This document shows positions 4,352-51,662 of a stretch of DNA of 60,216 bases, piece by piece. A model generated the notes under the pieces. That model saw only the letters and a list, made by a program, of their open reading frames with translations, did no database searches and was not told where the DNA came from. Both the position numbers and the translations under genes were made by a program. How positions within the stretch are numbered: the first letter of the stretch is position 1; every line of letters starts with the position of its first letter. Origin of the DNA: Opitutaceae bacterium. Its GTDB lineage: Bacteria > Verrucomicrobiota > Verrucomicrobiia > Opitutales > Coraliomargaritaceae. The stretch spans positions 1 through 60,216 of the forward strand of contig JBPOGA010000023.1 of the NCBI GenBank assembly GCA_051252415.1. Reading direction: 5' to 3'.

Positions 4352-4399
<48 letters not shown>

Positions 4400-11414: not shown

Positions 11415-11439
11415 TCCTAGTTTTGGCCCATGGTCGCGC

Positions 11440-13242: not shown

Positions 13243-13272
13243 ATGAGGTCGGAGGATTCCGTGTATGTATAG

Positions 13273-15069: not shown

Positions 15070-15099
15070 ATGTGATTGGAGGATACCTTGTATGAATGG

Positions 15100-16942: not shown

Positions 16943-18220
16943 ATGCAAAAAACACAGACTGGAATTTCTGTAGTCGATGGCTTCAAACTAATGGATGAGC
17001 GCTTCAATCAATTGAGCGGTGCGTCGAGCGGATTTGAGGCGTTAATTGGTAGCCAGTCTTATGCGTTGGATGACGCTGAACTTTCGGCAGCTGAATCGAG
17101 GTATGAGACTATTAAAGAGTTTCAGGTGTCTGCTATGAAACTGTTTAGGGCCAGCTTAGTCGGAGATGCGGATGCATCGATTGCTCAAGGCATCCTCTCA
17201 GACGTGCCGGAGAGTTACGGTTGGGAGTATCATAAGCATCTGCCCGATGCGGTTTGGAAGACACCGGTTTACTTTCGTACAGATGAAGCTCGGCTAGGCA
17301 AGTTGACCGAAGTTCAATGTTCTGGGTCTGGTTGGGATCTGGTCGAGACACTACGTGATTTCTATGGCGCATGTCCCCAGCACTATGGCGAACCTCAGCG
17401 CTTCAAACGTTCATTGGCTGACTTGTTTCAAGAGGCGACGAAGAACTATGTTGGGGCTCAGCCAGTGGTGCACCATTTGGCAGATAATGCGTCACGTCCA
17501 CACGGAGCGCGTTTCTTTATACAGAAAGTGCGTGAGCAGGGTGGCACGTTTTTCTCTTATGATGGCGGCGTGCGCCATTCGGATTGTAACTTTATCCGTA
17601 GCCACGATTGCTACAGTCTTTACCATCACAACTTCTTTGCCGACAGATTAGAGAGGTCCGAGCACGGCGAATGCTTCTTCGATTTGCCGCCGATTGCTTT
17701 GTATGATACAAAACTAATTATGGCATGGCCTTTCTGGAGCCGCACACGTGAGCATTTCTCCGATGAGGTGCGTGAGTTGTTCCCCTTTACCGCATTGATC
17801 GAAGCGGACGGAGTCGAGCTAGCTGATGGTAGGAAGGCCGATATTCAAACGATCATAGACATCGGAAATAATCAGCGGAATTACTTTGTTAAATATGCGG
17901 GCACCGATGTGGCGCGCAATTGGGGGAGTCGTGCCGTCTTCTCGTTGAGAGGCCTCAGTCGTGGGAAGTGTGAGGAGTTGTTGCGCACGATCACAGATGA
18001 AACGAGCAAAGGCCAACCATGGGTGCTTCAAGAGTCAGTGCACGAAAAGCAATCCGTCACCTTCTGGGAGCCAGGGACCGAAGAAGAGGGCTCCATGCAG
18101 GGCAACGGGAAGTGGAGCAGTTTCTATGGTCCTGAAGGGCTTATGGCGATGTTAGTCATGCACCTCGGCTCTCATAAAGTTCATGGTAGCGATAAGACTG
18201 TCATGAGCATTGTCTACTAA
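16943..18220 (+). CDS. Hypothetical protein of 425 aa, divergently transcribed from the AsnB-like operon; possible amidoligase partner
   Basis: Long ORF with a plausible start in the divergent promoter region and no confidently recognised motifs. A weak ATP-grasp-like C-terminal element (KGQPWVLQESV) is speculative. Confidence 0.45.
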   Translation: MQKTQTGISVVDGFKLMDERFNQLSGASSGFEALIGSQSYALDDAELSAAESRYETIKEFQVSAMKLFRASLVGDADASIAQGILSDVPESYGWEYHKHLPDAVWKTPVYFRTDEARLGKLTEVQCSGSGWDLVETLRDFYGACPQHYGEPQRFKRSLADLFQEATKNYVGAQPVVHHLADNASRPHGARFFIQKVREQGGTFFSYDGGVRHSDCNFIRSHDCYSLYHHNFFADRLERSEHGECFFDLPPIALYDTKLIMAWPFWSRTREHFSDEVRELFPFTALIEADGVELADGRKADIQTIIDIGNNQRNYFVKYAGTDVARNWGSRAVFSLRGLSRGKCEELLRTITDETSKGQPWVLQESVHEKQSVTFWEPGTEEEGSMQGNGKWSSFYGPEGLMAMLVMHLGSHKVHGSDKTVMSIVY

Positions 18221-22769: not shown

Positions 22770-22890
22770 AAGGTAGCGGCGTGCGTCCCTGCGCGCCATT
22801 GCGGTTTGTAGGCTGCGGTTCAGGCAATCTAATCTCTTGGCTCTGGCTGATCTAACGTGTGGCGCGCCGGGGCGCGCGCCGCTACCTAAG
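22770..22890 (+). repeat. GC-rich palindromic repeat family F2, full copy: a 27-bp stem (ggtagcggcgtgcgtccctgcgcgcca / tggcgcgccggggcgcgcgccgctacc) around a loop of about 60 nt
   Basis: Long-range inverted repeat read directly. The loop is the part shared with 20093-20143. Related palindromes occur at 27025-27110 and 49440-49480. Confidence 0.75.
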
Positions 22891-22933: not shown

Positions 22934-24373
22934 TTAATCTTCTGGTCGTTCTCCGGCTTGTGCCATCTTAACGAGTCGTGGATGAAAGCGTCCTAGTTTT
23001 TCAACGAGGTCGCTTTGCGCATCCATGACGGTTTCGATGTCTTTATAGACGGCGGGCACTTCGTCGAGACCGGCGGACATGAGTTCCACTTGGTTGGCCT
23101 TGAGTAGCTTGTTCGCGTCTTCCCAGCGCAAGTGCTGTTTTGCTTTGCTTCGGGACATGACACGTCCGGCTCCGTGCGAGGCGGATTGCAGCGATTCGGC
23201 ATTACCTTTACCTCGAACGAGGTAAGCAGGTGTCGCCATTGAGCCTGGGATGATTCCCATCACACCTACGCCAGCGGGCGTCGCGCCTTTTCGGTGAACG
23301 AAGACTTCCTTGCCGAAGTGGTTTTCCTTCCATGCGAAGTTATGGTGGTTTTCCACGTCGAGGAGGACTTCTGCGCCGAGGTGTCGTGCGATGTGTCGGT
23401 GGATGCAATCGTGATTGGCGGCTGCGTAATTACCCATGAGGTTCATGGCTGCCCAGTATTCTTGTCCGGCTGAACTGTTCATATCGAGCCACGCGAGGTG
23501 TTTCAATTTGTCTGGCAGTTCTCGGTGTTGCTCGCTGGCGAGCTTCGAATAATAGTTGGCGACATTTGCCCCAGCACCTCGGCTTCCGCTATGGGAGAGC
23601 AGGGCGAGATAGTTGCCTTGCGGGATTCCAAGTTCGTCGTTGTCGACCTCGAAGAGGCCAAACTCGACGAAGTGGTTGCCACTTCCAGAGGTTCCTAGCT
23701 GTGCCCATGCTTTGTCTTTCATTCGCTCAGTCACTTCGGTGATCGACCAGTCTTGATCCATCACTGCGTGTCGTCGCTTCACATCGCCTTTGAAGTGCGA
23801 ACCAATTCCGAAACGAGTTTCAGTTTCGATCGCTTTTTTAAGACGATCAATTTTGGTGCGCTTCTCGAGGTGCTTGAGTGGTAGATCGAGCACGGTGAGT
23901 TTCATACGACAGGCGATGTCGACACCGACCGCGTAGGGAATGATCGCATTTTCAGTCGCGAGGACTCCGCCGATTGGAAGGCCGTAACCTACGTGCGCAT
24001 CTGGCATGAGTGCGCCAGCTACCGCGACGGGTAGGTCGCAGGCGTTACGCATTTGATCGATGGACTGAGGCTCGAGATCTTTACCCCATTGTTTCCATGG
24101 AGCAGGTGCCGCGCGGGCTTCGAATCGTGGTATCGCGATGAGCATGGCTGCCAATTCGTTCCAATGGGAATGATCGGCATAGGCCTCTGGATCACGAGCG
24201 ACGTTGATCAGCTCGGAACGCACCGTTTCCACGGGGATCGTTTCGTTGATTAGACGTTTTATAATTTGATGTGCGAGTCGGGATGCATCGCCTGTAGGGA
24301 TGCCCCAACGTTGAAGGTCGGATGCTTTCATAAGTTTTCCTTTTGTTGATACGTTTATTTTAAGGTTCAGCAA
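22934..24373 (-). CDS. rtcB: RNA-splicing ligase RtcB (3'-phosphate/5'-hydroxyl RNA ligase) with an N-terminal extension
   Basis: Canonical RtcB motifs: PDAHVGYGLPIGGV, GVDIACRM, SGNHFVEFGL, HSGSRGAG, HNF, SASHGAGR. An alternative start at Met 24331 is possible. Confidence 0.85.
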   Translation of the reverse strand: MLNLKINVSTKGKLMKASDLQRWGIPTGDASRLAHQIIKRLINETIPVETVRSELINVARDPEAYADHSHWNELAAMLIAIPRFEARAAPAPWKQWGKDLEPQSIDQMRNACDLPVAVAGALMPDAHVGYGLPIGGVLATENAIIPYAVGVDIACRMKLTVLDLPLKHLEKRTKIDRLKKAIETETRFGIGSHFKGDVKRRHAVMDQDWSITEVTERMKDKAWAQLGTSGSGNHFVEFGLFEVDNDELGIPQGNYLALLSHSGSRGAGANVANYYSKLASEQHRELPDKLKHLAWLDMNSSAGQEYWAAMNLMGNYAAANHDCIHRHIARHLGAEVLLDVENHHNFAWKENHFGKEVFVHRKGATPAGVGVMGIIPGSMATPAYLVRGKGNAESLQSASHGAGRVMSRSKAKQHLRWEDANKLLKANQVELMSAGLDEVPAVYKDIETVMDAQSDLVEKLGRFHPRLVKMAQAGERPED

Positions 24374-24403
24374 AGCTGAAGACCGCTAATAGGCGCTAAT
24401 TAG

Positions 24404-24450
24404 TTTGGATGTTTGGATGTTTGGATGTTTGGATGTTTGGATGTTTGGAT
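24404..24450. repeat. 8-bp tandem repeat (TTTGGATG)n, about 6 units, between the upstream hypothetical gene and rtcB
   Basis: gtttggatgtttggatgtttggatgtttggatgtttggatgttgggtg. Confidence 0.85.
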
Positions 24451-24458
24451 GTTGGGTG

Positions 24459-24596
24459 ACTCTTGTTGGAGGGCTGTGCTTGCTCGGGTGAGCTTGTCGA
24501 ACCCTGTCACAGCCGCTTTTGTTAGCAGTTGCGGTTCGATTTGTTTGTGTGTTCGAAAGCGCTTGCCGAACGGCGGACACGGAGGCCCGCCCTCCA
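24459..24596. repeat. Structured repeat R1 of about 138 bp, closed by tggagggc...gccctcca, with internal hairpins
   Basis: The 5' 50 nt and 3' 30 nt are nearly identical to R2 (25650-25782). The centre is variable but keeps AAAGCRCTTGCC. The internal stem is ggctgtg...cacagcc. Confidence 0.8.
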
Positions 24597-25649: not shown

Positions 25650-25782
25650 TTGAGGGCTGTGCTTGCTCGGGTGAGCTTGTCGAACCCTGTCACAGCCGCA
25701 TGTTGTATGTGGGTTGGCGTTTCGATTTGATTAGGTGTGCTAAAGCACTTGCCGAACGGCGGACACGGAGGTCCGCCCTCCA
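25650..25782. repeat. Structured repeat R2 (paralogue of R1)
   Basis: See R1. It is a direct-orientation copy lying on the other side of the hypothetical gene. Confidence 0.8.
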
Positions 25783-26960: not shown

Positions 26961-27024
26961 AATAGTTATGGGTTGTCGTTGTTTGTTGGATACAGCGACC
27001 AGAGTGGTCGCTGAGAGAAAGTAG

Positions 27025-27110
27025 GTAGCGCAGGCGCGTCCCGCGCCGCATCGATTATGGGTGTTTTGTTGAGTCTGATGCGGTGCGGGACGCACCTGCG
27101 CTACCTGGAA
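27025..27110. repeat. GC-rich palindrome (F2-related) with a stem of about 30 bp: ggtagcgcaggcgcgtcccgcgccgcatc...gatgcggtgcgggacgcacctgcgctacc
   Basis: Inverted repeat read directly. It lies upstream of the SPFH gene. Confidence 0.75.
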
Positions 27111-27422: not shown

Positions 27423-27505
27423 CATGATCAGTGGGATTTGAACCCACAAGTCCTTGCGGACAACGGTTCCTTAAACCGACGCGTTTACCATTTCGCCATG
27501 ATCGT
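27423..27505 (-). tRNA. tRNA-like gene 1, type II (long variable arm, 3-bp D-stem), Leu-like: anticodon loop UUAAGGA gives a nominal AAG anticodon; C2-A71 mismatch
   Basis: Canonical T-arm GTGGG-TTCAAAT-CCCAC. D-loop AATGGTAAA. Variable hairpin GTCC-GCAA-GGAC. Acceptor ACGATCA/TGATCAT with one mismatch. Possibly a pseudogene. Confidence 0.55.
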
Positions 27506-27575
27506 TACTGTCCGGGAGTTGAACCCGGGACCAATGGAGTTACATCCATAGCTCTACCTTCTGAGCTAACAGTAT
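27504..27575 (-). tRNA. tRNA-like gene 2 with a 6-nt anticodon loop (stem ATGGA/TCCAT, loop TGTAAC), A1-A72 mismatch and discriminator C; identity unassigned
   Basis: Canonical D-arm TAGCTCAGAAGGTAGAGCT and T-arm CCGGG-TTCAACT-CCCGG. The anticodon loop is one nt short as read from the sequence. Confidence 0.45.
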
Positions 27576-27578
27576 CGG

Positions 27579-27651
27579 AGTAACTAGCTGGATTTGAACC
27601 AAGCTTCTTCTTGAATAACAAGACGCTCTGACCGGGCTGAGCTATAGTTAC
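27579..27651 (-). tRNA. tRNA-like gene 3 with a perfect 7-bp acceptor (GTAACTA/TAGTTAC) but a 5-nt anticodon loop (TCTTG-TTATT-CAAGA); identity unassigned
   Basis: Canonical D-arm TAGCTCAGCCCGGTCAGAGC and T-loop TTCAAAT. The anticodon arm is aberrant as read. Confidence 0.45.
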
Positions 27652-27750
27652 ATTGTGGATTCCGCTTAGAACGTCGAGCGGAACGCTGAACTCTAACAGG
27701 TGAAACCCGAGAGTGCCGCGCCGCCGACCGGAAGTGAGAGAATGTATGTG

Positions 27751-27889
27751 TAGGGGTTGTGCTTGTCTGAGATCATGAGCCTGTCGAATGGCGAAGACCG
27801 AGACAGGCTAAGGAGCTTAGGACTTTCGAAGGCTTCAAGTCGTTCTACCTTTTTGGCCATTGCCCGGTCCGCGCGAGCACGGCCCCTAC
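27751..27889 (+). repeat. Structured element family F4, copy 1 (139 bp), in a gap of the tRNA array: terminal 16-bp stem gtaggggttgtgcttg/cgagcacggcccctac with G-U wobbles on the plus strand
   Basis: Paralogue of 28231-28370. It shares tgtaggggYtKtgcttgtY..gatcatgagcYtgtcgaatggcgaagac....cggtccgcgcRagcacggcccctacg. Compensatory changes keep the stem. Internal hairpin gcctgtc/gacaggc. Confidence 0.75.
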
Positions 27890-27979
27890 GTTTTAATAAT
27901 CCTGCGGGAGAAGGAATTGCACCTTCTCTAGTGAAGTCAAAGTTCACGGTGCGTCTGTTACACTATCCCGCATGAAGGT

Positions 27980-28051
27980 TACCCGTAGCCAGAATCGAAC
28001 TGGCGTTTTCGCGTCGAAAGCGCGATGTCTTAACCACTTGACTATACGGGC
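27980..28051 (-). tRNA. tRNA-Glu (anticodon UUC), canonical
   Basis: GCCCGTA-TA-GTC-AAGTGGTTAA-GAC-A-TCGCG-CTTTCGA-CGCGA-AAAC-GCCAG-TTCGATT-CTGGC-TACGGGT-A. CCA is not encoded. Confidence 0.85.
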
Positions 28052-28056
28052 TAAAT

Positions 28057-28133
28057 TGGTCGCAGAGGTGGGATTTGCACCCACAGCTTCGGGCGTATGA
28101 GACCCGCGCTCTAACTGTTTGAGCTACTCTGCT
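28057..28133 (-). tRNA. tRNA-Met/Ile2 (anticodon CAU), non-canonical: D-loop AAACAGTTA lacks G18G19, T-loop TGCAAAT has G55, A1-G72 mismatch, CCA encoded
   Basis: AGCAGAG-TA-GCTC-AAACAGTTA-GAGC-G-CGGGT-CTCATAC-GCCCG-AAGCT-GTGGG-TGCAAAT-CCCAC-CTCTGCG-A-CCA. Confidence 0.7.
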
Positions 28134-28138
28134 TGAAA

Positions 28139-28214
28139 TGGTCGTAGAACTGGGACTTGCACCCAGACTCTCAGGCTTATCAAGCCCGTGCTTTGCTACT
28201 TAAGCTATTCTACT
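28139..28214 (-). tRNA. tRNA-Ile (anticodon GAU), non-canonical: D-loop AAGTAGCA without GG, T-loop TGCAAGT with G55, A1-G72 mismatch, CCA encoded
   Basis: AGTAGAA-TA-GCTT-AAGTAGCA-AAGC-A-CGGGC-TTGATAA-GCCTG-AGAGT-CTGGG-TGCAAGT-CCCAG-TTCTACG-A-CCA. Confidence 0.7.
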
Positions 28215-28230
28215 TAAATGGTCGTAATTT

Positions 28231-28370
28231 GTAGGGGCTTTGCTTGTTCCGGATCATGAGCTTGTCGAATGGCGAAGACGGTGACAGTTTTGAGGCAATT
28301 GGAGTTTCGATGGCATGTCGAACTCGGTTCGCTTTCTACATTCTGCGGTCCGCGCAAGCACGGCCCCTAC
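28231..28370 (+). repeat. Structured element family F4, copy 2 (140 bp), in the second gap of the tRNA array
   Basis: See 27751-27889. Terminal stem gtaggggctttgcttg/caagcacggcccctac. Confidence 0.75.
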
Positions 28371-28378
28371 GCTTAAAG

Positions 28379-28453
28379 TGGTGCCACATCATGGACTTGC
28401 ACCATGGCCTACCGGTTAAAAGCCGGCTGTTCTGCTTGTTGAACTAATGAGGC
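28379..28453 (-). tRNA. tRNA-Lys (anticodon UUU), non-canonical: D-loop AACAAGCA without GG, T-loop TGCAAGT with G55, U4-U69 mismatch, CCA encoded
   Basis: GCCTCAT-TA-GTTC-AACAAGCA-GAAC-A-GCCGG-CTTTTAA-CCGGT-AGGC-CATGG-TGCAAGT-CCATG-ATGTGGC-A-CCA. Confidence 0.7.
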
Positions 28454-28457
28454 AAAT

Positions 28458-28581
<124 letters not shown>

Positions 28582-28591
28582 ACATAGTGAT

Positions 28592-28667
28592 TGGTGGGAG
28601 CACATGGAATCGCACCATGACTTTCTGAACTTCAATCAGACGTGCAGACTATCTACACTATACTCCC
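28592..28667 (-). tRNA. tRNA-Phe (anticodon GAA), non-canonical: D-loop AGATAGTCT without GG, T-loop TGCGATT with G55, CCA encoded
   Basis: GGGAGTA-TA-GTGT-AGATAGTCT-GCAC-G-TCTGA-TTGAAGT-TCAGA-AAGT-CATGG-TGCGATT-CCATG-TGCTCCC-A-CCA. Confidence 0.7.
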
Positions 28668-28672
28668 TTAAA

Positions 28673-28804
28673 TGATCGCGGAGACAGGACTTGTTCCGAG
28701 GAACGTAGTGACGACAAGACCGGGCGCTTTGCGAACCGGAACACCGACTTTTTAAGAATAGCCGGTGTCCAAGACCGGAGCCTTACCAATTTGGCCACTC
28801 CACG
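28673..28804 (-). ncRNA. tRNA-like element B (about 132 nt), paralogue of A: acceptor CGTGGAG/CTCCGCG, D-arm GCC-AAATTGGTAA-GGC, anticodon-like arm CCGGU-CUUGGAC-ACCGG (UGG), 3' end ...A-UCA instead of CCA
   Basis: Same architecture as A, with compensatory base changes in the acceptor stem and inner hairpin. Confidence 0.5.
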
Positions 28805-28818
28805 TGATGATTGAAAAT

Positions 28819-28909
28819 TGGTGGACAGGGCAGGACTCAAACCTGCAAGGCAAAGAGATGCTCCGGGTTTACAATCCGGTGCCGCTATCAATTACGGCTC
28901 TACCTGTCC
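28819..28909 (-). tRNA. tRNA-Tyr (anticodon GUA), type II (91 nt with CCA), non-canonical: D-loop without GG, T-loop TTTGAGT with U56
   Basis: GGACAGG...CCGGA-TTGTAAA-CCCGG...variable hairpin GCA-TCTCTT-TGC...GCAGG-TTTGAGT-CCTGC-CCTGTCC-A-CCA. The D-arm register is irregular. Confidence 0.6.
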
Positions 28910-30076
28910 ATTGGCGTAGGGCTGTCGTTTGCTGAGACAGCGAATGCATTTGTCTAGTTCGATTGCACGACGCAGCATCGAGCAAGCTCGAGCCCTACGC
29001 ATAGTAAGTTGGCTCGGACTTCGGCGAGCTCAGTCGAGTCGCGGGCAGGCCACGATCCTGCAACATTGGCCTTAACAGGGCCACGTTCTACCAATTGAAC
29101 TACCGCCGAATTTTGAAAGTTGAGTCCAGCATAGCTGGAGACCGCTAATGTTCGCTTATTGACGCTAATGATTAACGTTTGCTGAGATAAGCGTTTATTA
29201 GTGAAAATAAGCGGTCTCCGGCTTTGCCGGATTTCTATTGGAAATTATATGTTTCCACCAAGGACGGCTGTTTCGCCCCTCTCATACTTCAACATAAAGT
29301 CATGGTTTGGACGCCATTTATAAGACGTTTTACCCTCTGCTTTTGGTGAGTGGGGAACCGTTAAACTGTAAGTGGTGGAAACAAAAAAGCCCAAGCGCGG
29401 TATGAGTGCGGCTTGGGCTTTAAGAAAGTTTTGGTATTTCATCGTCTAAAAGAGACTGAATATTCGACCACATAGACGCGGCGGAAATACCTGTTTTCTA
29501 CAAGCCCTTGCTTGCGGATTATCAAATGTCTGCGCGAGCAGCTCATCGGTCTTTTCGATTAACCGAAGATAACTGCCGCAGGGCATTTGAATGTGAGTGT
29601 GTGGTTTCATGTGATTAAAATTTATGTTGCCGAACTTGTGCACAGATTTCCTGTATGTCAAATATTAAATTGCATAAAATGCTAATTATTAATTACTTAC
29701 GAATCATTCAAGGCTCCGCCCTGACGCAGGTCATATTCCTTTATGGAAACGGTCAATGTCGTGATTTGGGCAAGCAAAAGGCCCGGCTGCAATGTGCAGT
29801 CCGGGCCTTTTGAAAGGGGTAATGTGCGCTAACTTATTCGTTTATAAATACGATGATGTTGTGAGTGCTACCTTTCTAGAACCGGACATGCGGGTGCATG
29901 TATCTCCCTTCGGATATTCATTAAGAAAATCCGCTTTGGGCTGCATGGTTCTGTGGATGGATAATAGCATGATGTTTTGAAGAAGAGGCGTTTCTCTAAA
30001 ACGACTGAAGTGCTGTCAACCTCCAAGGGTGTATCAGAAACATATTATGATATCGTTATATATTGATTGTTAAGAG

Positions 30077-33000
30077 CTATGATAAGAACTTTGCCGTCAC
30101 GCTATGTTTAGTCTGTTTCAATCCTTCGATGTTTCCCTGATATAGTAGTTCGCCGCCCGCTTCACCGCCGTTGGGGCCGATCTCTATCGTGTAGTCTGCA
30201 TCTGTAATCACATCGAGATGGTGTTCAATGACGATGACCGTGTGGCCTTTGTCGACGAGTCGGTGGAGGAGTTCGATGAGGCGTTCGACATCGGAGAGGT
30301 GGAGGCCGATGGTGGGTTCTTCGAGGATATAGAGGTTGCCTTGGCCTTTGTTGTATTGGCGCTCCTTGAAAGTGGGTTGGCCTTTGGCGAGTTCGCTGAC
30401 GAGTTTCATGCGCTGGGCTTCTCCGCCGGACAGAGTCGGGGAGTATTGACCTAGTTCGATGTAGCCGAGTCCTGTTTCGACCATTAGCTTCATGAGGCTA
30501 CTGAGTTGTGTGTGGAAACTGAAGAACTCTGCGGCTTCTTCGAAACTCATGGCGAGCACGTCGGCGATACTTTTTCCATGCCAACGCAATTCATCGAGCT
30601 CGGCACCGTAGCGACGGCCGTCGCAATCTTCGCAGGTCACATAGGTGTCGGGCATGAAATTCATTTCAAGCTTCACTCGGCCTGCGCCTTTGCAGGTTTC
30701 GCAGCGGCCGCCTTTGGTGTTGAACGAGAAGGTGCTCTTTGTGTAGCCACGCATATTCGCTTCGGGGAGCTTTGCGAAAATGTCGCGGATGATATCGAAT
30801 GCGCCGATGTAAGTTGCGGGTGTTGAGCGGTTAGTTTTGCCGATGGGTGAATGATCGACCTCAATCAAGCGGCGCACATCATTTGCATGATGAAGTGCCT
30901 TGAATGCTTTTGTAGGGGCGTTGCTTGTCGACGCCCGTGACGTCAGGCTTGGGTTCGAGCGGGCGTCGGCAAGCAACGCCCCTACGACTTTGTTAGTTAG
31001 CTTTGACGACCTTTTCTCGATTGCTGCCTCTACTAAAGGTTTCAACAAAGCGCGAACGAGCGTGCTTTTACCTGCTCCGGAAACGCCGCAAACGACGGTG
31101 AGGCGCTGCTTGGGAATCTGCACATCGAAGCCTTTGAGGTTTCTGAGTGCGGCTCCTTGTAATGCAATCCAGTTCTCGTTGCCCTTCTTTTTGCGCGGGC
31201 TCCATGGTGCTGGTAGTTCGCGGTGGCTGCCGCGTAAGGGATGCGGCATACTCTTGTGTAGATATTTTCCGGTGAGTGATGTCTTTGCTTTTTTGATTTG
31301 GGTGATTTTTCCAGAGGCAACGATCTCGCCGCCGTGGATGCCGGCTGCGGGGCCGATGTCGATGATTTGGTCAGCCGCGCGCATGGTTGCTTCGTTGTGC
31401 TCGACGATCACGAGTGTGTTGCCTCGGTCGCGGAGCTGTTTGAGTGATGTGAGTAGTTTCTCGTTGTCGCGTGCGTGCAAACCGATGGAGGGTTCATCCA
31501 GCACGTAGAGCACGCCTGAGAGGTTAGAGCCGAGTTGTGCTGCTAGGCGAATGCGCTGTGCTTCGCCTCCTGAGAGAGTGGCGGTCGCCCGATCAAGGCC
31601 GAGGTAATCGAGGCCGACACGATCCATGAAGCGCATGCGTTCTTGGATCTCGGGGAGGAGCTCGGCCAACACCGTTTCGCTACGTTTGTCGGTCTTAATC
31701 TGTGTTAGTGTGGCGAGTAGATTAGACGGCGTTAAGCTGAGCAGTTCGGGCAGCGAAACGGAGTTGGGAACGTCGAACGTTGAACATCGAACGTCCAATT
31801 TTGAATGGCTCTGATTCTGATTATTTGATGTTGAGCGTTGGACGTTCGATGTTCGACGTTCCCTTCGTTCCTTCAGCGGGAGGCGGACGGCGCGACTGAG
31901 TGGGTTTAATCGTGCGCCTTCACAATCGGGACAGGTTTCGCCATCTTCGAAGTCATCGAGATGGATGGTGGTAGATTCTTCTTCTTTATCCATCCACTCG
32001 AACAGTTGTCCGTAGCCACGGCATGTTGGGCACCAGCCGCGTTGGCTGTTCCAAGAGAAATGCTTTGGGTCGAGTTCGGGGAAGGCGTCTCCTGTCGTGG
32101 GATCGGTGCGCTTTGTGGAAAGCCATGAGAGCACTTCGCCTTTGTTAGTGAGGATAAAGGCGCTGCCTTTGCCTAGTCTCAAGGCATCTTTGAGGGCGGC
32201 GGGCGATGCTCCGTCATCGCCGCCGTTCTTGCCCTTTGCGGCTGTGACGGAGCACAGCCCTCCAGTTAGGTGTGCAACAACTAGATCGATGTCGTGCTCG
32301 ACGTAGCGGTCTAGTTTTTTGAAGTCTGAAATATTGATGAGTTCGCCATCGATGCGAAGTTGTGTGTAGCCGTGGTCGCGTGCCCAGTTGGCAAGTGGCT
32401 CGTGGTGGCCTTTACGTCCGCGAATTAATGGAGCGCAGAGGAGGAGGTTTTGAGGTTTTGAGGTTCTGAGGTTCTGAGGTTTTGAGGTTCTGAGGTTTTG
32501 AGGTTTTGAGGTTTTGAGGTTTTGAGGTTTTGAGGTTCTGAGGTTTTGAGGTTGTGCGTGCTCGGCTAGGATGGTTTCGAGGCGTTTTTGTAGGGCGGCT
32601 TCGCTTTGGCTGACAACGGCTTCGCCAGTTGTTGGGGAATGTTGGATGCCAATGCGTGCGTAAAGCAGGCGAAGGTATTGCGCGACTTCGGTAATTGTCG
32701 CGACGGTTGATTTTCGTGTGCCTTTGGTGACGCGTTGCTCGATAGCGACGGTGGGGGCGATCCCGCTTAGCTCGTCGACATCGGCACGTGGCATTTGCTC
32801 GACGAATTGTCGTGCGTAGGCTGACATCGATTCCATGAAACGGCGTTGGCCTTCAGCGAAGATGATGTCGAAAGCGAGTGAGGACTTGCCCGAGCCTGAA
32901 ACGCCAGTGATGACGGTGGTTTTGCCATGGGGGATTTCGCAGCTGATGCTCTTTAGGTTGTGCTGGCGGGCGCCGCGAATGCGGAGGGTATTGGGGAACG

Positions 33001-36000
33001 TCGAACGTCCAACGTTCAACTTTGAATTTTGACGGAGGTCTGCCGGAGATGGCGCAGCAACTTTGTATGCGCCTGCAGGCTCTGCGGCTAGTAATTCGTT
33101 ATTATTCGACGTTGAACGTTCGACGTTCGACGTTCGATGTTCACCCAGCGCTTCGCTTAGATACTTGGCGGTTTCGCATTTGGCTTTGGTGATTTGCTGG
33201 GGTGTGCCTTCCGCGATGACTTGTCCGCCATTGGCGCCGGCTTCGGGGCCTAGCTCGATAACCCAGTCGGCAACTTTTAGAATGTCGAGGTTGTGTTCGA
33301 TGACGATTAAGGAGTGACCTGCGTCGACTAGGTTTTGCAAAACGTCGATCAGGCGTTTCACGTCGGCTCGGTGGAGTCCTGTTGTGGGTTCGTCGATGAG
33401 GATGAGTGCATGATGGGATGGCGCGGAGGGACCCGCGCCGCTACCTTTGATCTTGCCGAGATAGCTGACGAGCTTGAGGCGTTGGGATTCGCCGCCTGAG
33501 AGTGTGTTGAGTGGCTGCCCGAGCTTTAGGTAGCCGAGTCCGACATCGATCATCGGTTGAAGACAGCGTGTGATCTTAGTATATTCACCGAAGATGAGCA
33601 GTGCTTCGTCGATATCCATTTCAAGGATGTCGGCGATGGAGCGGCCGTTGAATTCGATTTCTAAAACCTCGGGTTTGAAGCGTTGACCTTCGCAGCTTTC
33701 ACAGGGCACGAAGACGTCGGAGACGAATTGCATTTCAATGCGTTCGAAGCCGAGGCCAGAGCAGGTCGGGCAGCGGCCATCACCACTGTTGAACGAGAAG
33801 TGGCCTGGGCCCATGCCTGAGGATTGCGCGGCTTCGAGTTTTGAAAAGAGCTTTCTAACTTCGTCCCATGCTTTGGAATAACTGGCAGGGTTGGAACGCG
33901 GTGTTTTACTTACTGGGCTTTGATCGATGAGGACGATGTCAGAAAGTGGGAGGGTGGATTCGATATCTTTGATTTGCGCAGGTTCTTCAACGGAGAGGCC
34001 TTTGCGTGCGAGCAGGTTTTGATAGATGACGTTGTTGAGTAGCGTGCTTTTCCCTGATCCAGAAACACCGCTTAGACAGACGAAGCTTTGCTGCGGTATG
34101 TGAAGGGTGATATTGTTGAGGTTGTGTTTTGATGCATCGTAAATGGAAAGGAGGGGGAGACCACCCCGACTCGACAAGCGAGTCACCCCTCCTTTGAAAG
34201 GAGGGGAGCTAGGATCTTGCTTTAGACGCCGTTGCTTCGGTGCCTCTATAGTTTCGCGACCAGAGAGGTAGCGCCCCGTGTGGGTGTCGGATTTTAAGAT
34301 CTGTTGGTAGCTGCCGCTGAAACTGAGTTGGCCGCCATTCTTACCTGGTTGTGGGCCTATCTCGATGAGGTTGTCGGCTGCGCGCATGACGGCTTCGTCG
34401 TGCTCGACAACCACGACGGTGTTGCCGAGGTTGGTGAGGCGGCGGAGGATCAAGATGAGACGATCCATGTCACGCGGGTGTAGGCCGACAGAGGGTTCAT
34501 CAAGCACGAAGAGTGTGTCTACGAGTGAGGAGCCGAGGCATGAGGTGAGATTGACGCGCATCGTCTCGCCGCCTGATAGCGTGCGCGAGGTGCGATCAAG
34601 AGTCAGATAGCCGAGGCCGACTTGATCGAGGAAACTGAGGCGTGAGAGGATGCCTTGAAGTGCGGAGTCGGGTTCTTGGTAGGGACTGCTGCCCTCAGCA
34701 GTCCGCTTACTTGATGTGGCGGACGCCTGAGGGCAGGCGTCCCTACCTAAGATGCCTAGCAAATCAGCGACACTTTTTTGGTAGAGCTCGTGGAGTTGGT
34801 GCCCATTCCATTTCCAGTTTAGAGATTCGGGTTGTAAGCGTGCGCCACCGCACTCTGGGCAGGTTGTGTAACTGCGGAATTTTGAGAGAAACACGCGGAC
34901 GTGCATCTTGTAGAGGTTCTGATTGAGCCAATCGAAGAAGCGATGGACTCCATACCATTGTCCATTGTCTTGTTTATACTTAGGGTCGCCCTCCATGACG
35001 AACTTGAGCTCTTTTTTGTTGAGCTTCGACCATGGGATATGTGTGCGCACATTGTGCTTCTTGGCGGCGCGTTGGAGATCGCGCAGGCTCTCGCTGTAGA
35101 CCTGACCTTGAAAGGCGCGTATCGCGCCGTCATCGATCGACTTGCTGTGATCGGGGATGACTAAGTTGTCGTCGATCTCTATCACGCGTCCAAAACCACG
35201 GCATTCGGAACACGCTCCGATCGGGGAATTGAACGAGAATAGTGCAGGTATGGCTGGACGAAAAGTCTGTCCGGTCTCGGGCGAGCTGAGTCCATGGGTG
35301 AATTCGGCCACCGGTTTGCATTGAGCATCTAGAATTTGAATGTGTCCCTTGCCAAATTTGAATGCTTGCTGTGCGGCTTCGATGAAACGGGAGCGGACTT
35401 TGTCATTCGTGATCGTTACACGATCCTGAATGACAAAGAGTGATGAGTGAGAAGTGAGGAGTGAGGAGTTGCCTTTTAATAACTCTTGGATGCGAAAAAT
35501 TTCATACTGGTTCTTTCCACTTTCCACTACCTTCTTCCTACTCTTGCGTAGCAAGACTCTGGAATAACCTTGGCTGCTAAGAGAACTCAGGATTTCGGAC
35601 CACTTTAGTTTTTCGGGCTTGGTGACTTCAAAGGTGATGAGGACGGTTTTGTCTTTGCTACTTTCGAGTAGCGATTTCCAGGCAGACTGTGCGTTGTCGT
35701 CGGTGATCGGGGCGCCTGTAGCTGGATCGTAAAGTGTGGCGGCGTTGGCGAACCAGACTTTGAAGTAGTCGCAGAGTTCGGTGATCGTGCCGACAGTGGA
35801 GCGCGAGGTTTTGACGGTATTGGACTGGTGAATCGCGATGGAAGGGCGGATGTTTTCCACGCTGTCGACCTTCGGTCGGTCGAGTAGATCCATGAATTGC
35901 CGTGTGTAGGGCGAGAAGGTCTCGACGTAGCGGCGCTGGCCTTCGGCGTGGAGTGTTTCAAAAACGAGCGAGGATTTACCTGCACCGCTGAGTCCTGTGA

Positions 36001-36118
36001 CTACAGTGAGTTGACCGATTGGTAGATCGAGATCGAAACCTTTGAGATTGTTTTGGCGAACGCCTTTTAGGCGGATGAAATCTTTGGTCGAAGGCATTGG
36101 TTCACGAAGATTAGACAT
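30077..36118 (-). CDS. Tandem UvrA-UvrA fusion (2013 aa, four ABC ATPase modules), excinuclease ABC subunit A-like; carries multiple in-frame repeat insertions
   Basis: Four Walker A sites (GLSGAGKSSL, GVSGSGKSTL, GVSGSGKSSLAFD, GVSGAGKSTL) and four LSGGE signature/Walker B pairs. UvrA Zn-finger cysteines are present. N-terminus IRLKGVRQNNLKG and the start of the second unit IRGARQHNLKSIS are UvrA-like. Confidence 0.85.
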   Translation of the reverse strand: MSNLREPMPSTKDFIRLKGVRQNNLKGFDLDLPIGQLTVVTGLSGAGKSSLVFETLHAEGQRRYVETFSPYTRQFMDLLDRPKVDSVENIRPSIAIHQSNTVKTSRSTVGTITELCDYFKVWFANAATLYDPATGAPITDDNAQSAWKSLLESSKDKTVLITFEVTKPEKLKWSEILSSLSSQGYSRVLLRKSRKKVVESGKNQYEIFRIQELLKGNSSLLTSHSSLFVIQDRVTITNDKVRSRFIEAAQQAFKFGKGHIQILDAQCKPVAEFTHGLSSPETGQTFRPAIPALFSFNSPIGACSECRGFGRVIEIDDNLVIPDHSKSIDDGAIRAFQGQVYSESLRDLQRAAKKHNVRTHIPWSKLNKKELKFVMEGDPKYKQDNGQWYGVHRFFDWLNQNLYKMHVRVFLSKFRSYTTCPECGGARLQPESLNWKWNGHQLHELYQKSVADLLGILGRDACPQASATSSKRTAEGSSPYQEPDSALQGILSRLSFLDQVGLGYLTLDRTSRTLSGGETMRVNLTSCLGSSLVDTLFVLDEPSVGLHPRDMDRLILILRRLTNLGNTVVVVEHDEAVMRAADNLIEIGPQPGKNGGQLSFSGSYQQILKSDTHTGRYLSGRETIEAPKQRRLKQDPSSPPFKGGVTRLSSRGGLPLLSIYDASKHNLNNITLHIPQQSFVCLSGVSGSGKSTLLNNVIYQNLLARKGLSVEEPAQIKDIESTLPLSDIVLIDQSPVSKTPRSNPASYSKAWDEVRKLFSKLEAAQSSGMGPGHFSFNSGDGRCPTCSGLGFERIEMQFVSDVFVPCESCEGQRFKPEVLEIEFNGRSIADILEMDIDEALLIFGEYTKITRCLQPMIDVGLGYLKLGQPLNTLSGGESQRLKLVSYLGKIKGSGAGPSAPSHHALILIDEPTTGLHRADVKRLIDVLQNLVDAGHSLIVIEHNLDILKVADWVIELGPEAGANGGQVIAEGTPQQITKAKCETAKYLSEALGEHRTSNVERSTSNNNELLAAEPAGAYKVAAPSPADLRQNSKLNVGRSTFPNTLRIRGARQHNLKSISCEIPHGKTTVITGVSGSGKSSLAFDIIFAEGQRRFMESMSAYARQFVEQMPRADVDELSGIAPTVAIEQRVTKGTRKSTVATITEVAQYLRLLYARIGIQHSPTTGEAVVSQSEAALQKRLETILAEHAQPQNLRTSKPQNLKTSKPQNLRTSKPQNLRTSKPQNLLLCAPLIRGRKGHHEPLANWARDHGYTQLRIDGELINISDFKKLDRYVEHDIDLVVAHLTGGLCSVTAAKGKNGGDDGASPAALKDALRLGKGSAFILTNKGEVLSWLSTKRTDPTTGDAFPELDPKHFSWNSQRGWCPTCRGYGQLFEWMDKEEESTTIHLDDFEDGETCPDCEGARLNPLSRAVRLPLKERRERRTSNVQRSTSNNQNQSHSKLDVRCSTFDVPNSVSLPELLSLTPSNLLATLTQIKTDKRSETVLAELLPEIQERMRFMDRVGLDYLGLDRATATLSGGEAQRIRLAAQLGSNLSGVLYVLDEPSIGLHARDNEKLLTSLKQLRDRGNTLVIVEHNEATMRAADQIIDIGPAAGIHGGEIVASGKITQIKKAKTSLTGKYLHKSMPHPLRGSHRELPAPWSPRKKKGNENWIALQGAALRNLKGFDVQIPKQRLTVVCGVSGAGKSTLVRALLKPLVEAAIEKRSSKLTNKVVGALLADARSNPSLTSRASTSNAPTKAFKALHHANDVRRLIEVDHSPIGKTNRSTPATYIGAFDIIRDIFAKLPEANMRGYTKSTFSFNTKGGRCETCKGAGRVKLEMNFMPDTYVTCEDCDGRRYGAELDELRWHGKSIADVLAMSFEEAAEFFSFHTQLSSLMKLMVETGLGYIELGQYSPTLSGGEAQRMKLVSELAKGQPTFKERQYNKGQGNLYILEEPTIGLHLSDVERLIELLHRLVDKGHTVIVIEHHLDVITDADYTIEIGPNGGEAGGELLYQGNIEGLKQTKHSVTAKFLS
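30912..30985. repeat. F4-type palindrome (near-perfect 26-bp inverted repeat gtaggggcgttgcttgtcgacgcccg / cgggcgtcggcaagcaacgcccctac) inserted in frame in the UvrA-like CDS
   Basis: Read directly. It encodes about 25 extra residues (...ADARSNPSLTSRASTSNAPTK...) within the ORF. Confidence 0.75.
31766..31863. repeat. F5 palindromic element copy 1 (98 bp; stem of about 30 bp gggaacgtcgaac...gttcgacgttccc) in frame within the UvrA-like CDS
   Basis: Read directly. It encodes ...ERRTSNVQRSTSNNQNQSHSKLDVRCSTFDVP... Confidence 0.8.
32444..32552. repeat. 8-bp tandem repeat (GAGGTTYT) x about 13.5, in frame within the UvrA-like CDS; encodes (PQNL[RK]TSK)n
   Basis: gaggttttgaggttttgaggttctgaggttctgaggttttgagg...; every three units make one 8-aa peptide repeat. 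Confidence 0.85.
32994..33146. repeat. F5 palindromic element copy 2 (about 153 bp) in frame within the UvrA-like CDS
   Basis: Termini gggaacgtcgaacgtccaacgttcaac...gttgaacgttcgacgttcgacgttcgatgttcaccc. The loop segment gacggaggtctgccggagatggcgcagcaac is shared with copy 3. It encodes ...EHRTSNVERSTSNNNELL...NSKLNVGRSTF... Confidence 0.8.
34141..34200. repeat. GC-rich nested hairpins (ggagggg...cccctcc; cccctcctttgaaaggagggg) in frame within the UvrA-like CDS
   Basis: Read directly. It encodes ...PPFKGGVTRLSSRGGLPLLS... Confidence 0.6.
34682..34746. repeat. Pair of palindromes (ggactgctg-ccctc-agcagtcc; ggacgcctg-agg-caggcgtcc) in frame within the UvrA-like CDS
   Basis: Read directly. It encodes ...ATSSKRTAEGSSPYQEPDS... 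Confidence 0.6.
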
Positions 36119-38919: not shown

Positions 38920-41229
38920 TTATACCTTAGGCTCTGTTTGGTTTCTTAGCCGCGCTTGTAGGTGTGTGCGGCGCACTTGTTGGTCGTTGTTGCGAACGGC
39001 CATGGAGTAGGCTTCAATTTGGCCGACGAGGTAGACTTTCGCTTTTGCTCGGGTGATGCCGGTGTAGACTAGATTGCGCTGAAGCATCATGAAATGCTGC
39101 TTGAGGAGTGGAATCACGACTACGGGGTATTCGCTACCCTGGCTTTTGTGAATGCTGATCGCGTAGGCGAGTTGGATTTCGGAGAGTTCGCCTTTGGTAT
39201 ATTCGATGGGTTCGCCAGAAAAGTTGACGGTGAGCCCTGAGCTGTCAGGGGCGATCCCGAGAATGATGCCGGTGTCGCCGTTGAAAATGTTCTTATCGTA
39301 ATTGTTGCGGGTCTGGATGACTTTGTCGCCAATCCGATAAGTGACAGCTCCGTAGGCGAGTTCTGCGGGAAGTGGCTTGCGGGTTTTTTCGCGAAAATGT
39401 GATTGGCGCGCTGGCACGTAGTCAGGGTCAGAGCGTAAGCGTGAGAGTGCTTTCTCCTTACTATTGAGCGCTTGCTGTAGTTCGACGTTGAGTGCGCTAA
39501 TGCCGGCTGTGCCGCGATGCATCGGAGAGAGCACTTGGAGGTCTTTGACGGGATCGCATTTGTGCGCCTTTGGAATGTATTCACGAGTTAAATACGTGAT
39601 GGCTTTGGCGCACTGCTCGGCGTCTTCGACTTCGACGAAAGTGAAGTCGTCGGTGGCATCTAGATCGCGCAGGCTGGTGATGGTTTTTCCAGGATGGGAT
39701 TCACCTTTCAGAATTGCGTGGGCAGTGGTGATAATACCGCTGGTTTCACCTTGGCGAAAGATGGTGTCGAGGCGTGTCACATGAGCGGGTGGAGCTGCCA
39801 TGAGGTCACCGAGGACGTTGCCTGAGCCAACAGCAGGGAGTTGGTCGGCATCGCCAACAAGTAGGAGATGTGCGCTGCTTGGGATGGCTTGGAAAAGACT
39901 GTCGGCGAGACGCGTATCTAGCATGCTGGCCTCGTCGACGATCAGTAGATCGCAGGGGAGTGGGTTGTCGGCGTTATAAACAAAGGTGCGTGTGGCGCCG
40001 TCGTATTTTAACAGGCGGTGTATTGTGCTGGCTTCTGCCCCCGAGGCTTCGGCGAGGCGTTGCGCTGCGCGGCCCGTTGGTGAGGCGAGTTGAATGCGGG
40101 CTCGTTTGGCGCGGAGAATGTCGACGACTGCGCGTAGAATCGTCGTTTTACCTGTGCCTGGTCCGCCTGTGATAATCGCGACCTTGGAGCTGAGTGCCTT
40201 TTTCAGTGCGGCGGATTGTTGGTCGGCAAACGTGAAGCCCGCCTTGTCTTGCGCCCATGCAATAGCCGCATCGAGTTTGATGGGGGGAATTGTTGAGGCG
40301 GTATCGTTGATTCGGTGGAGTGCTTCGGCGATACGTTTCTCTGCGCCAGCGAGTTTGGGGCGCTGGCATGCTGGGCCGAGGACTTGTTGTTTTTCATCGT
40401 AGGCGATGACAGAAAAGAGTGTTTCGCGTTCAATAAGTGCTCGGATGCGTTCCTGAATTAGCTGTGGTTCGACGCCGAGTAGCTGTAGGGCATGCTCGGT
40501 GATCGCTTGCTGGGTGCCGAGCGTGTGCCCGTCGTCTTCGAGTGTTTGCATCGTGTGCACGATGCCTGCGTCGACGCGCTCTTTGGAATTGGTTGGAAAT
40601 CCGAGATTGAGGGCGAGTTTATCCGCAGTCTTGAAGCCGATGCGCTCGATGTCTTCCGCGAGTCGGTAGGGCTCGTCTTGTAGGATACGCTTCGCGCCGC
40701 TGCCGTATTTTTTAACCAGGCGCACGCATTGTGATGGCGTGACGCCATAAGTTTGAAGGAACATCATCACATCGCGGACGGCGGCTTGTTCCTCCCATGC
40801 GGCTTTGATTGATTTGGCGCGACTCTTGCCAATGCCTGGCACTTCGTGGAGGCGGCCGGAGTCTTCGCTGATGACGCGTAGAGTGTCGGCCCCGAAATGA
40901 TCGACGATCTTCTTGGCGTAGGATTTACCGATGCCGTGCACCATGCCGCTACCTAGATATTTGCGAATGCCGTGGATCGAGGCGGGGAGTTGCGACTTAA
41001 AATTGGCAATTTTGAATTGATCGCCGTGAGTGGCGTGGCGTGTCCATTCGCCATTGAGCTTGAGCGTCTCGCCACACTGCACGCCTGGCAGGTTGCCAAG
41101 GACTGTGACTGGTTGCTTGCCTTCGGCGACAGCGACTTCGGCGACGCAGTAGGCATTCTCTTCGTTGAAGAAGATAATACGCTCTAATACGCCGGTGATG
41201 CTTTGGTCGCTATTTGGGGAGTGGGCCAT
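38920..41229 (-). CDS. recD2: ATP-dependent RecD-like DNA helicase (RecD2 family)
   Basis: N-terminal OB/HhH regions. Walker A GGPGTGKTT. DEASM Walker B. C-terminal UvrD-like helicase motifs (VSPMHRGTAG, SIHKSQGSE). Confidence 0.8.
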   Translation of the reverse strand: MAHSPNSDQSITGVLERIIFFNEENAYCVAEVAVAEGKQPVTVLGNLPGVQCGETLKLNGEWTRHATHGDQFKIANFKSQLPASIHGIRKYLGSGMVHGIGKSYAKKIVDHFGADTLRVISEDSGRLHEVPGIGKSRAKSIKAAWEEQAAVRDVMMFLQTYGVTPSQCVRLVKKYGSGAKRILQDEPYRLAEDIERIGFKTADKLALNLGFPTNSKERVDAGIVHTMQTLEDDGHTLGTQQAITEHALQLLGVEPQLIQERIRALIERETLFSVIAYDEKQQVLGPACQRPKLAGAEKRIAEALHRINDTASTIPPIKLDAAIAWAQDKAGFTFADQQSAALKKALSSKVAIITGGPGTGKTTILRAVVDILRAKRARIQLASPTGRAAQRLAEASGAEASTIHRLLKYDGATRTFVYNADNPLPCDLLIVDEASMLDTRLADSLFQAIPSSAHLLLVGDADQLPAVGSGNVLGDLMAAPPAHVTRLDTIFRQGETSGIITTAHAILKGESHPGKTITSLRDLDATDDFTFVEVEDAEQCAKAITYLTREYIPKAHKCDPVKDLQVLSPMHRGTAGISALNVELQQALNSKEKALSRLRSDPDYVPARQSHFREKTRKPLPAELAYGAVTYRIGDKVIQTRNNYDKNIFNGDTGIILGIAPDSSGLTVNFSGEPIEYTKGELSEIQLAYAISIHKSQGSEYPVVVIPLLKQHFMMLQRNLVYTGITRAKAKVYLVGQIEAYSMAVRNNDQQVRRTHLQARLRNQTEPKV

Positions 41230-41377
41230 GGTTCTCTCTTAGTGCTAAGCGTGCGAAGGTGAAGGTCAATGCGGTCCTTGTTTTTGGCACGAAAAAGCCC
41301 TCGTTGTGTCGCGAGGGCTATAGAAAAGGCTATTGGCATGCAATCCGTGCGCCTGTGTTTTAGGGCTCTGCAGAACT

Positions 41378-50853: not shown

Positions 50854-51126
50854 ATGGCTAGACTGTTCACTAATCTGAGAATGACAAGTGCTGTTCGAGA
50901 AATGTAGGGCTCGGGCTTTGAAACTGTCTTAAAATTGCGAAAAGTATCCTATTGGAGCGTCGGGCTCCGTCCCGACATTACGTCAGATTCAGTCCACTGA
51001 AGGTATGATGTCCGGACGGAGCCGGACGCTCCCATTTATTGAATTTTGAGGCAGTTTCCTTGCGCGATGCTTCCGGAGCAGAGTCTGCTATCACGTGTGA
51101 GCGTCGCGCAAGCGCGAGCCCTACGT

Positions 51127-51588: not shown

Positions 51589-51654
51589 TTAAGTGAAGAA
51601 TCTTCTATCTGGAATTCAATATTGGGCGTTCGAAGTTGGACGTTCGACGTTCCC
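51503..51654. repeat. F5 palindromic element copy 3 (152 bp), overlapping the 5' end of the S4 gene
   Basis: gggaacatcgaacttcgacggaggtctgccggagatggcggagcaacgtccaacg...gggcgttcgaagttggacgttcgacgttccc. It shares the loop segment with copy 2. A half-site fragment is also found at 48760-48790. Confidence 0.8.
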
Positions 51655-51662
51655 ATAACTCC

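Follow-up and report, generated by a model that had tools for sequence, protein, structure and literature searches.

The closest described system comes from Opitutus terrae. In a study of GTAG- and CGTC-tagged repetitive extragenic palindromes (REPs), this species had the largest number of intragenic GTAG REPs, both of its uvrA genes carry dual REP inserts, and genes for replication and repair are enriched in intragenic REPs (Di Nocera, De Gregorio, Rocco 2013, BMC Genomics 14:522, PMC3733652). Among the genes tabulated in this paper is Oter_2709, which codes for an excinuclease A subunit of 1995 aa and has inserts at aa 638-644 and 1601-1623. The authors suggested flexible loops as insert locations and speculated on mutator effects. 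As cited there, Rickettsia palindromic elements (RPEs) are in-frame palindromic inserts which leave the genes functional and add a surface peptide to the product. Two inverted REP hairpins with a short spacer form the so-called REPINs (REP doublets forming hairpins), which persist as long-lived populations and which, as described by Bertels and Rainey 2011 (PMC3116915) and in PMC3337134 and PMC8049555, are defined as extragenic and tied to a single-copy REP-associated tyrosine transposase (RAYT). Here we analyse a fused uvrA-uvrA gene (30077-36118, minus strand) in a window of 60,216 bp, which is the entire contig of a metagenome-assembled 'Opitutaceae bacterium' deposited at NCBI, a marine member of the Verrucomicrobia. 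The kind of event observed in this gene has already been published for O. terrae in 2013, and the present gene is an extreme example of it.

With high probability, this is a functional double-UvrA gene of nucleotide excision repair with at least nine in-frame inserts, comprising REP/REPIN-like doublets of at least three families, units of the very widely distributed (GAACGTC)n palindrome, and 7- and 8-bp arrays. The elements would have entered as DNA, by REP-type transposition and, in the case of the arrays, by replication slippage. Copies in tolerant loops and in a stop-free, hydrophilic frame would be the survivors of selection, and the surviving inserts would then, as predicted, be translated as harmless disordered peptide.

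The fused uvrA gene and its inserts

The open reading frame (ORF) is uninterrupted over 2013 codons and encodes two UvrA units (unit 1 at about aa 12-991, linker at about aa 992-1042, unit 2 at about aa 1043-2013). Two models of the UvrA equivalog recognize the protein, NF001503 with 1804 bits (cut-off 1147; the best stretch covers aa 12-991, other stretches cover unit 2) and TIGR00630 with 1770 bits (cut-off 730), and UvrA chains of the PDB match each half with E values of about 1e-200. The score with NF001885, the chlamydial long UvrA, is 1059 bits and lies below the cut-off of 3054. Four Walker A, four LSGGE and eight CxxC motifs were detected together with four Walker B motifs, two by a regular expression and two more by eye (LYVLDEPSIGLH and LYILEEPTIGLH). 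The original prediction, which was made from the sequence alone, had described a tandem UvrA-UvrA with four ATP-binding cassette (ABC) modules and intact motifs, and this description holds. For the alignments 117 orthologous proteins were used, along with 70 genes from 80 genomic loci, to which the L-numbers below refer. Since all close homologues (Coraliomargarita, Lentimonas, Puniceicoccaceae and metagenome-assembled genomes of Opitutales) are the same double-length fusion of 1817-2078 aa, the UvrA-UvrA fusion is a trait common to the order Opitutales and not peculiar to the present contig. Compared with the nearest orthologues, the core shows a ratio of nonsynonymous to synonymous substitutions (dN/dS) of 0.075-0.11 (about 0.09) at a dS of 1.3-1.5. 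Therefore, the gene is probably functional; its core is under strong purifying selection, and synonymous sites are near saturation; damage recognition and the loading of UvrB are its predicted tasks.

At least nine in-frame insertion events are found in the gene. Inverted REP doublets account for four of them, single heptamer-palindrome units for two, and a triple hairpin, a 7-bp array and an 8-bp array for one each. Seen from the start of the gene, the first of them (site 0) is a tandem array of the 7-bp unit CTCACTC (coding strand), of which Tandem Repeats Finder detected about 4.6 copies (35438-35469, minus strand; aa 217-227, LLTSHSSLF). A GTAG-headed inverted REP doublet of REPIN-like form occupies site A (34678-34747, with arms of 29 nt at 34678-34706 and 34719-34747; aa 458-481, GRDACPQASATSSKRTAEGSSPY), and three adjacent GC-rich hairpins occupy site B (34154-34206 within the region 34141-34208; aa 638-655, SSPPFKGGVTRLSSRGG). 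Sites D1 (33097-33146; aa 991-1008, EHRTSNVERSTSNN) and D2 (32993-33034, in inverse orientation; aa 1029-1042, NSKLNVGRSTFP) each hold a single heptamer-palindrome unit, the former of the (GAACGTC)n type. The two units flank a conserved linker motif, ELxxAEPxxxY, with D1 on its upstream side, and can pair through arms of 39 nt (32996-33034 and 33097-33135) across a 62-nt spacer. We counted them separately because some relatives carry just one of them, D1 in L033 and D2 in L001. Site E is a tandem array of the 8-bp unit AAAACCTC (coding strand), with 13-13.8 copies and 94% matches (32444-32553, minus strand), which is read as (PQNL[RK]TSK)x4.5 at aa 1189-1225. The inverted doublet at site F (32198-32263; aa 1286-1307, GGLCSVTAAKGKNGGDDGASPA) belongs to a family built of GGAG, a 7-bp stem and a CTCCGT loop. 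Site G is a heptamer-palindrome dimer (31766-31863, with arms of 33 nt at 31766-31798 and 31831-31863; aa 1419-1451, RERRTSNVQRSTSNNQNQSHSKLDVRCSTFDVP), and site H is again a GTAG-headed inverted doublet (30912-30985, with arms of 26 nt at 30912-30937 and 30960-30985 which are 96% complementary; aa 1712-1736, VGALLADARSNPSLTSRASTSNAP). A further palindrome (35398-35438, arms of 19 nt, 89% complementary, 3-nt spacer) adjoins the 7-bp array; it lies inside conserved uvrA coding sequence (VIQDRVTITNDK) and is no insertion relative to the orthologues.

The structure of the inserts was assessed by folding them as single-strand DNA and comparing them with 200 dinucleotide shuffles. Whole elements were folded, as segments cut at the alignment borders split the elements and understated their structure. 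The resulting z values are -8.7 for site H, -7.8 for G, -6.9 for D1 and D2 together, -4.2 for B, -7.9 for A and -4.2 for F; no fold structure is present in the 8-bp array at site E. The heptamer motif has 15 matches where 0.03 are expected. REP-type stem-loops, that is imperfect palindromes of 20-40 nt, are represented by the units at A, F and H with stems of 6-9 bp, and the REPIN layout of two inverted units and a spacer is seen at A, F, G and H. A GTAG head is present at site A (GGTAGGGAC), at site H (TTGTAGGGGCG) and in other hairpins of the window; GGAG takes its place in the site-F family, and GTAG is absent from the heptamer palindrome, which begins with GGGAAC.

With these results, most of the original inventory can be retained. 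Its hairpin 'F4', its two palindromes 'F5', the 8-bp repeat and the palindrome pair are all present at the coordinates it gave and are non-random. It had counted at least six insertions; the doublet at 32198-32263 and the array at 35438-35469 were added here, and with the palindrome at 32993-33146 counted as two single units there are nine events. The hairpins at 34141-34200 are indeed GC-rich, but they are adjacent and not nested. The F5 elements had been said to keep the same encoded frame in all copies. Part of this similarity is arithmetic, since a 7-nt repeat encodes one cyclic heptapeptide in all three frames; even so, a single phase is shared by all left-arm heads in uvrA (13/13).

AlphaFold (AF2) models were made of the two halves separately and reached a mean predicted local distance difference test (pLDDT) value of 80 and 75. 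Values below 50 were obtained for the insert segments aa 462-482 (site A), 649-651 (B), 994-1041 (D1 at aa 994-1010, D2 at aa 1011-1041), 1192-1219 (E), 1288-1302 (F), 1420-1446 (G) and 1718-1735 (H). At site B there is just a dip in confidence, with values below 50 confined to these three residues and means of 62 and 50 for the two 10-residue blocks of aa 631-650. Two more segments below 50, aa 196-199 and 892-900, are length-variable sites which are not obviously repeat-derived in the present gene. Apart from these, values below 50 are confined to the N-terminus (aa 1-9) and, in each half, to one flexible loop that is conserved (aa 99-109 and 1129-1139). In alignments to the solved UvrA structures 3PIH and 2R6F the insert segments are gaps, site B for example being a gap of 18 aa relative to the Thermotoga maritima UvrA 3PIH. 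The inserts are thus predicted to lie in segments of disordered coil on an otherwise well-folded protein, and the mapping onto a UvrA structure that had been proposed as a check places them in floppy loops. Their assignment to inter-domain linkers applies to site B, between ABC modules 1 and 2 of unit 1, and to site D, between the two UvrA units, whereas the other sites are surface loops within domains, predicted to be disordered. Sites E and F are located in what we take to be the counterpart of the UvrB-binding domain in unit 2 (domain names after the B. stearothermophilus structure). Of the six possible reading frames, the inserts use open ones that rank among the most hydrophilic, which fits a selection filter on the loop peptide.

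Repeat DNA and turnover among orthologues

The inserts appear to be repeat DNA and not conserved protein sequence, because they are absent in the shortest orthologues, dispersed at other loops and in intergenic DNA, covary in their stems, and are 83-97% identical in DNA despite saturated synonymous sites. The inserts all sit at hot spots of variable length, and the shortest fusion orthologues (1817-1834 aa) have nothing at these spots, so that each segment is an insertion relative to these proteins. By blastn, the site-A doublet was found at another loop (site C) in L014, L012 and L028 have DNA matches of about 90% to the triple hairpin of site B at different loops of their uvrA, and the 8-bp array occurs as three arrays at three loops of the uvrA in L019. 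On the 60-kb contig itself, one extragenic copy of the heptamer palindrome (51518-51655, between an S4-domain gene and an aminotransferase gene) and two extragenic GGAG/CTCCGT hairpin units (24570-24595 and 25756-25781, both minus strand) were detected; further copies of the site-A or site-H types are found nowhere else on this contig. In the window and the 80 loci, the GGAG/CTCCGT family comprises 37 units, 27 of them in uvrA. Five of its seven stem pairs covary among 31 units, with 70 compensatory cells compared to 19±4 in shuffles; as the units were chosen for pairing, the percentage of paired positions is circular, while the variety of pairs is not. Depending on the site, one of the insert families is read in one or the other of two frames.

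Beyond these loci, a 25-nt degenerate pattern of the (GAACGTC)n heptamer palindrome matched at least 120 metagenome contigs (L081-L200) from many habitats, with GC contents of 0.34-0.72. Among the matches listed, the palindrome is mostly outside long ORFs and never in uvrA. A few apparently internal in-frame copies are included in these listed matches, in L094 (before a P-loop), L111 and L137. No paper was found that describes the heptamer palindrome or the other elements by sequence or peptide. A search for other proteins with such inserts gave no scored candidate for a 90-aa concatenate of four insert peptides, and a phmmer search of 1.84 billion representatives with a 40-aa insert peptide gave 5 hits only. 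Elsewhere in the window there are further GTAG-headed inverted doublets of several sequence families (51-340, 22771-22887, 27023-27106, 50951-51035 and 53804-53887), all of which lie either between genes or right at the 5′ end of a stop-to-stop ORF.

Comparison of the individual sites shows fast gain, internal in-frame deletion and replacement of the inserts among close relatives. The doublet at site A has identical borders in L014 and L006, carries a 21-nt in-frame internal deletion in L002, is present as a single unit in L031 and is missing in L022 and L023, where the site is empty; each half of the doublet retains its own stem. The element at site G is common to L001, L003 and L004, has left collapsed remnants in L014 and L033, is replaced by other families in L002 and L012, and its loop is empty in L030 and L022. 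In the loop of site H, close relatives carry heptamer-palindrome dimers. Shorter arrays at the position of site E exist in L002 and L014, and the array of site 0 is absent or shorter in L053, L012, L006 and L022-24. Among relatives with about 80% protein identity, the content of one and the same loop ranges from the same doublet through deleted copies, single units, other families and heptamer arrays to an empty site. More distant orthologues have the same peptide types with hairpin potential lost (z about 0, for segments cut at the alignment borders), and their inserts are probably decayed relics.

Inserts that are shared with relatives are 83-97% identical in DNA (97% for the site-F doublet and L001) and 76-95% identical at third codon positions, where the gene-wide identity is about 0.5. 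Such identity at saturated synonymous sites is unlike inherited coding sequence, and the expectation, named in the original prediction as its refutation, that orthologues carry the segments as conserved protein sequence was not borne out. The shared inserts would therefore be either much younger than the species splits, through conversion or repeated insertion at the same spot, or under constraint as nucleotide or RNA sequence. Near sites D and F, the flanks of the window gene and of L001 also show raised identity, a sign of a possible recombination tract. As a general cause of the high insert identity recombination was rejected, since the flanks at site A are not raised, and it explains some cases at most.

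A constraint of this kind would be expected if the hairpins were not passengers but structures under selection, kept for a role in the DNA or mRNA; they might, for instance, cause pausing or cleavage and in this way separate the folding of successive domains or set transcript stability. We consider such a role unlikely but still worth weighing, and it would be compatible with an origin by insertion. Covariation of the stems with constant loops and tags speaks for it, as do the conservation of shared elements far above that of synonymous sites, with flanks not raised at site A, and the position of the elements at domain borders and loops. However, distant orthologues keep the peptide types after the hairpin potential has been lost, close relatives have empty sites, unrelated families or unstructured arrays at the same loops, and the 8-bp array is wholly unstructured.

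Accumulation of repeats in uvrA and the tandem arrays

In the window and 79 loci, with about 20 kb of flank sampled per genome, the frequency of repeats was compared between uvrA (0.45 Mb), other ORFs (1.02 Mb) and intergenic DNA (0.10 Mb). The heptamer palindrome occurs 0.91 times per 10 kb in uvrA, 0.04 times in other ORFs and 0.48 times in intergenic DNA. For hairpins with stems of at least 16 bp the corresponding numbers are 0.56, 0.17 and 2.61 (uvrA versus flanking ORFs, p = 9e-5). All of the (CTCACTC)n arrays (18/18) and all of the (AAAACCTC)n arrays (6/6) are inside uvrA, which amounts to 24 against none elsewhere in the 1.6 Mb covered, and (CTCACTC)n arrays are present at other uvrA loops in 14 loci. 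Another repeat is seen in L070, where a GTGG-tagged REP of 25 nt (GTGGCGCTGCTCGCCAGAGCAGCGA) has nine copies at 10626-15471, of which seven are identical. All nine are inside uvrA and on its coding strand, and they share one frame (RGAARQSSD), which is one of six open combinations of frame and orientation. No copy was found in 20 kb of flanks. The uvrA gene is a strong, order-wide sink for repeats with rapid turnover, and the direction of the enrichment is clear.

Several points weigh against the insertion of mobile REP-type elements as the full explanation. That the short arrays (7 and 8 bp) and the GTGG-tagged REP of L070 were found in uvrA only fits better with gene-specific targeting, or with spread inside the gene, than with ordinary genome-wide transposition. 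For the site-H element, which is a putative repeat, no second copy exists in the window or in the 80 loci. No RAYT transposase was found among 10 ORFs scanned in the window, which covers the 60-kb contig only. At a looser threshold (stem of at least 12 bp), which admits chance hairpins, the hairpin enrichment in uvrA is just 1.5-fold, and as copies across orthologues are phylogenetically non-independent, the p-values of enrichment are optimistic.

A more far-reaching possibility is that uvrA is specifically targeted, with the arrays and certain REPs proliferating only there, at loops and in one phase, and with the arrays acting as reversible frameshift switches of unit 2, which would allow these marine bacteria a stochastic and heritable control of excision repair and mutation rate. 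We regard this combination as quite unlikely. The mutator idea has been only speculated on by Di Nocera et al. (PMC3733652).

Two tandem repeats in the ORF have a unit that is not divisible by three, the 8-bp array with 13.8 units (32444-32553) and the 7-bp array with 4.6 units (35438-35469). A change of the 8-bp array by one or two units leads to a stop at aa 1226-1241, within 15 codons, and a change by three units keeps the frame. If slippage added or removed one or two units, the protein could be truncated after unit 1, and sub-populations that differ reversibly in excision repair and mutation rate could arise. That the arrays are on/off switches in this sense seems to us improbable, despite 13 near-perfect units in the ORF and the confinement of the arrays to uvrA in the sequences examined. 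In L019, the uvrA frame breaks exactly at a (AAAACCTC)n array (10612-10681); either the gene is truly in an off-state here or the repeat has been misassembled. Most orthologues are without the array or have just 1.5 units, and neutral slippage would also leave arrays in disordered loops. If the arrays do switch the gene by frameshift, a contingency locus would be present in a DNA-repair gene; if not, the case is an extreme but ordinary one of in-frame REP insertion. Two more (AAAACCTC)n arrays are situated in the L019 uvrA (11909-11947 and 13733-13787), and a heptamer-palindrome dimer is located immediately upstream of its start (9887-10041). Arrays are also found at other genes of the window. 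The start of an RtcB RNA-ligase gene (22937-24385, minus strand) is closely preceded by a perfect 8-bp array, (GTTTGGAT)x6.4 at 24403-24453, which has the GGAG/CTCCGT unit at 24570-24595 next to it; slippage could alter promoter spacing here. A 7-bp array, (GGAGACA)x6.6 at 4352-4397, is situated at the 5′ end of the ORF 3339-4397 (minus strand).

Selection at the protein level has also to be considered, with the segments as low-complexity linkers, that is flexible hydrophilic loops which arose by spread or convergence without mobile DNA. All inserts are in disordered loops and use hydrophilic frames, the nine REP copies of L070 share one of six open combinations of frame and orientation, and the left-arm heads of the heptamer element share one phase (13/13). 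We nevertheless judge this explanation to be very unlikely, as the same sequences occur in intergenic DNA and are very widely non-coding, the stems covary in DNA while the peptide changes, third codon positions are conserved, and one family is read in two frames at different sites. A decaying pseudogene, or repeats that are assembly artefacts of a metagenome bin, might be suspected from the origin of the contig, from palindromes and arrays that are hard to assemble and from disrupted copies in L019 and L053, yet both were rejected as having next to no probability in view of 2013 open codons, intact motifs, a dN/dS of about 0.09 and the same inserts with identical borders in independent assemblies. 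In the uvrA of L053, the equivalent of aa 1383-1490 is missing in frame (13849-13949), and a separate fragment resembling a UvrA C-terminus lies 1.6 kb downstream of the gene (17124-17551).

Regarding the genomic neighbourhood, a gene for a RecD2-type helicase (38923-41238, minus strand) is located 2.8 kb upstream of uvrA, with RimK-like ATP-grasp and GNAT/peptidase-C39-like genes in between; none of these genes contains hairpin inserts. Directly 3′ of uvrA, 11 tRNA genes including tRNA-Ile(tat) are tightly packed (27423-29109, minus strand), one of which (27503-27576) has an anticodon loop of 8 nt. An Rfam scan of the window detected tRNAs and no other family.

Comparison with known systems

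The preferred explanation, in-frame insertion of repeat DNA into a functional double-UvrA gene, shows how heavily selfish or slippage-derived DNA can load a conserved core enzyme without loss of the frame, and it yields a well-mapped set of permissive UvrA loops. With the order-wide hot-spot pattern, the turnover and the uvrA-only arrays, the question why repair genes, and uvrA above all, collect repeats becomes testable. Compared to PMC3733652, the comparison of 80 genomes, the turnover, the conservation of DNA relative to synonymous sites and the mapping to disorder are new.

Known contingency loci are mostly surface or restriction-modification genes and not core repair genes. The 8-bp array resembles simple-sequence contingency loci in being a tandem repeat within an ORF whose unit is not a multiple of three, so that slippage shifts the frame. 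The double-length UvrA has a counterpart in the chlamydial long UvrA of another lineage of the Planctomycetes-Verrucomicrobia-Chlamydiae group (NF001885/PRK00635, a model of 1809 positions), but the present protein is not that equivalog. RPE-1 is longer (about 100-150 bp) and confined to Rickettsia. With RPEs, our inserts share the in-frame insertion into a functional gene, a resemblance in behaviour only, as several shorter families are involved here and the host is not Rickettsia. The inverted doublets and the GTAG heads at sites A and H are like those of the REPIN-RAYT system, whereas the copies studied here are inside a gene.

The uvrA genes of O. terrae (PMC3733652) remain the nearest match, from the same order and gene family and likewise with in-frame palindromic repeats, as singles and inverted dimers, of about 7-25 residues. 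The original prediction had inferred a process comparable to REP insertion; this is more than an analogy, since REPs have been published in the orthologous uvrA. By residue numbering alone, with the proteins unaligned, the insert at aa 638-644 of Oter_2709 may coincide with site B. Nine events per gene were found here and two per gene there, and the repeat families differ, including a non-GTAG heptamer palindrome and a GGAG-tagged family in our gene. The 7- and 8-bp tandem arrays, which are not described in PMC3733652, are a further feature of the present uvrA.

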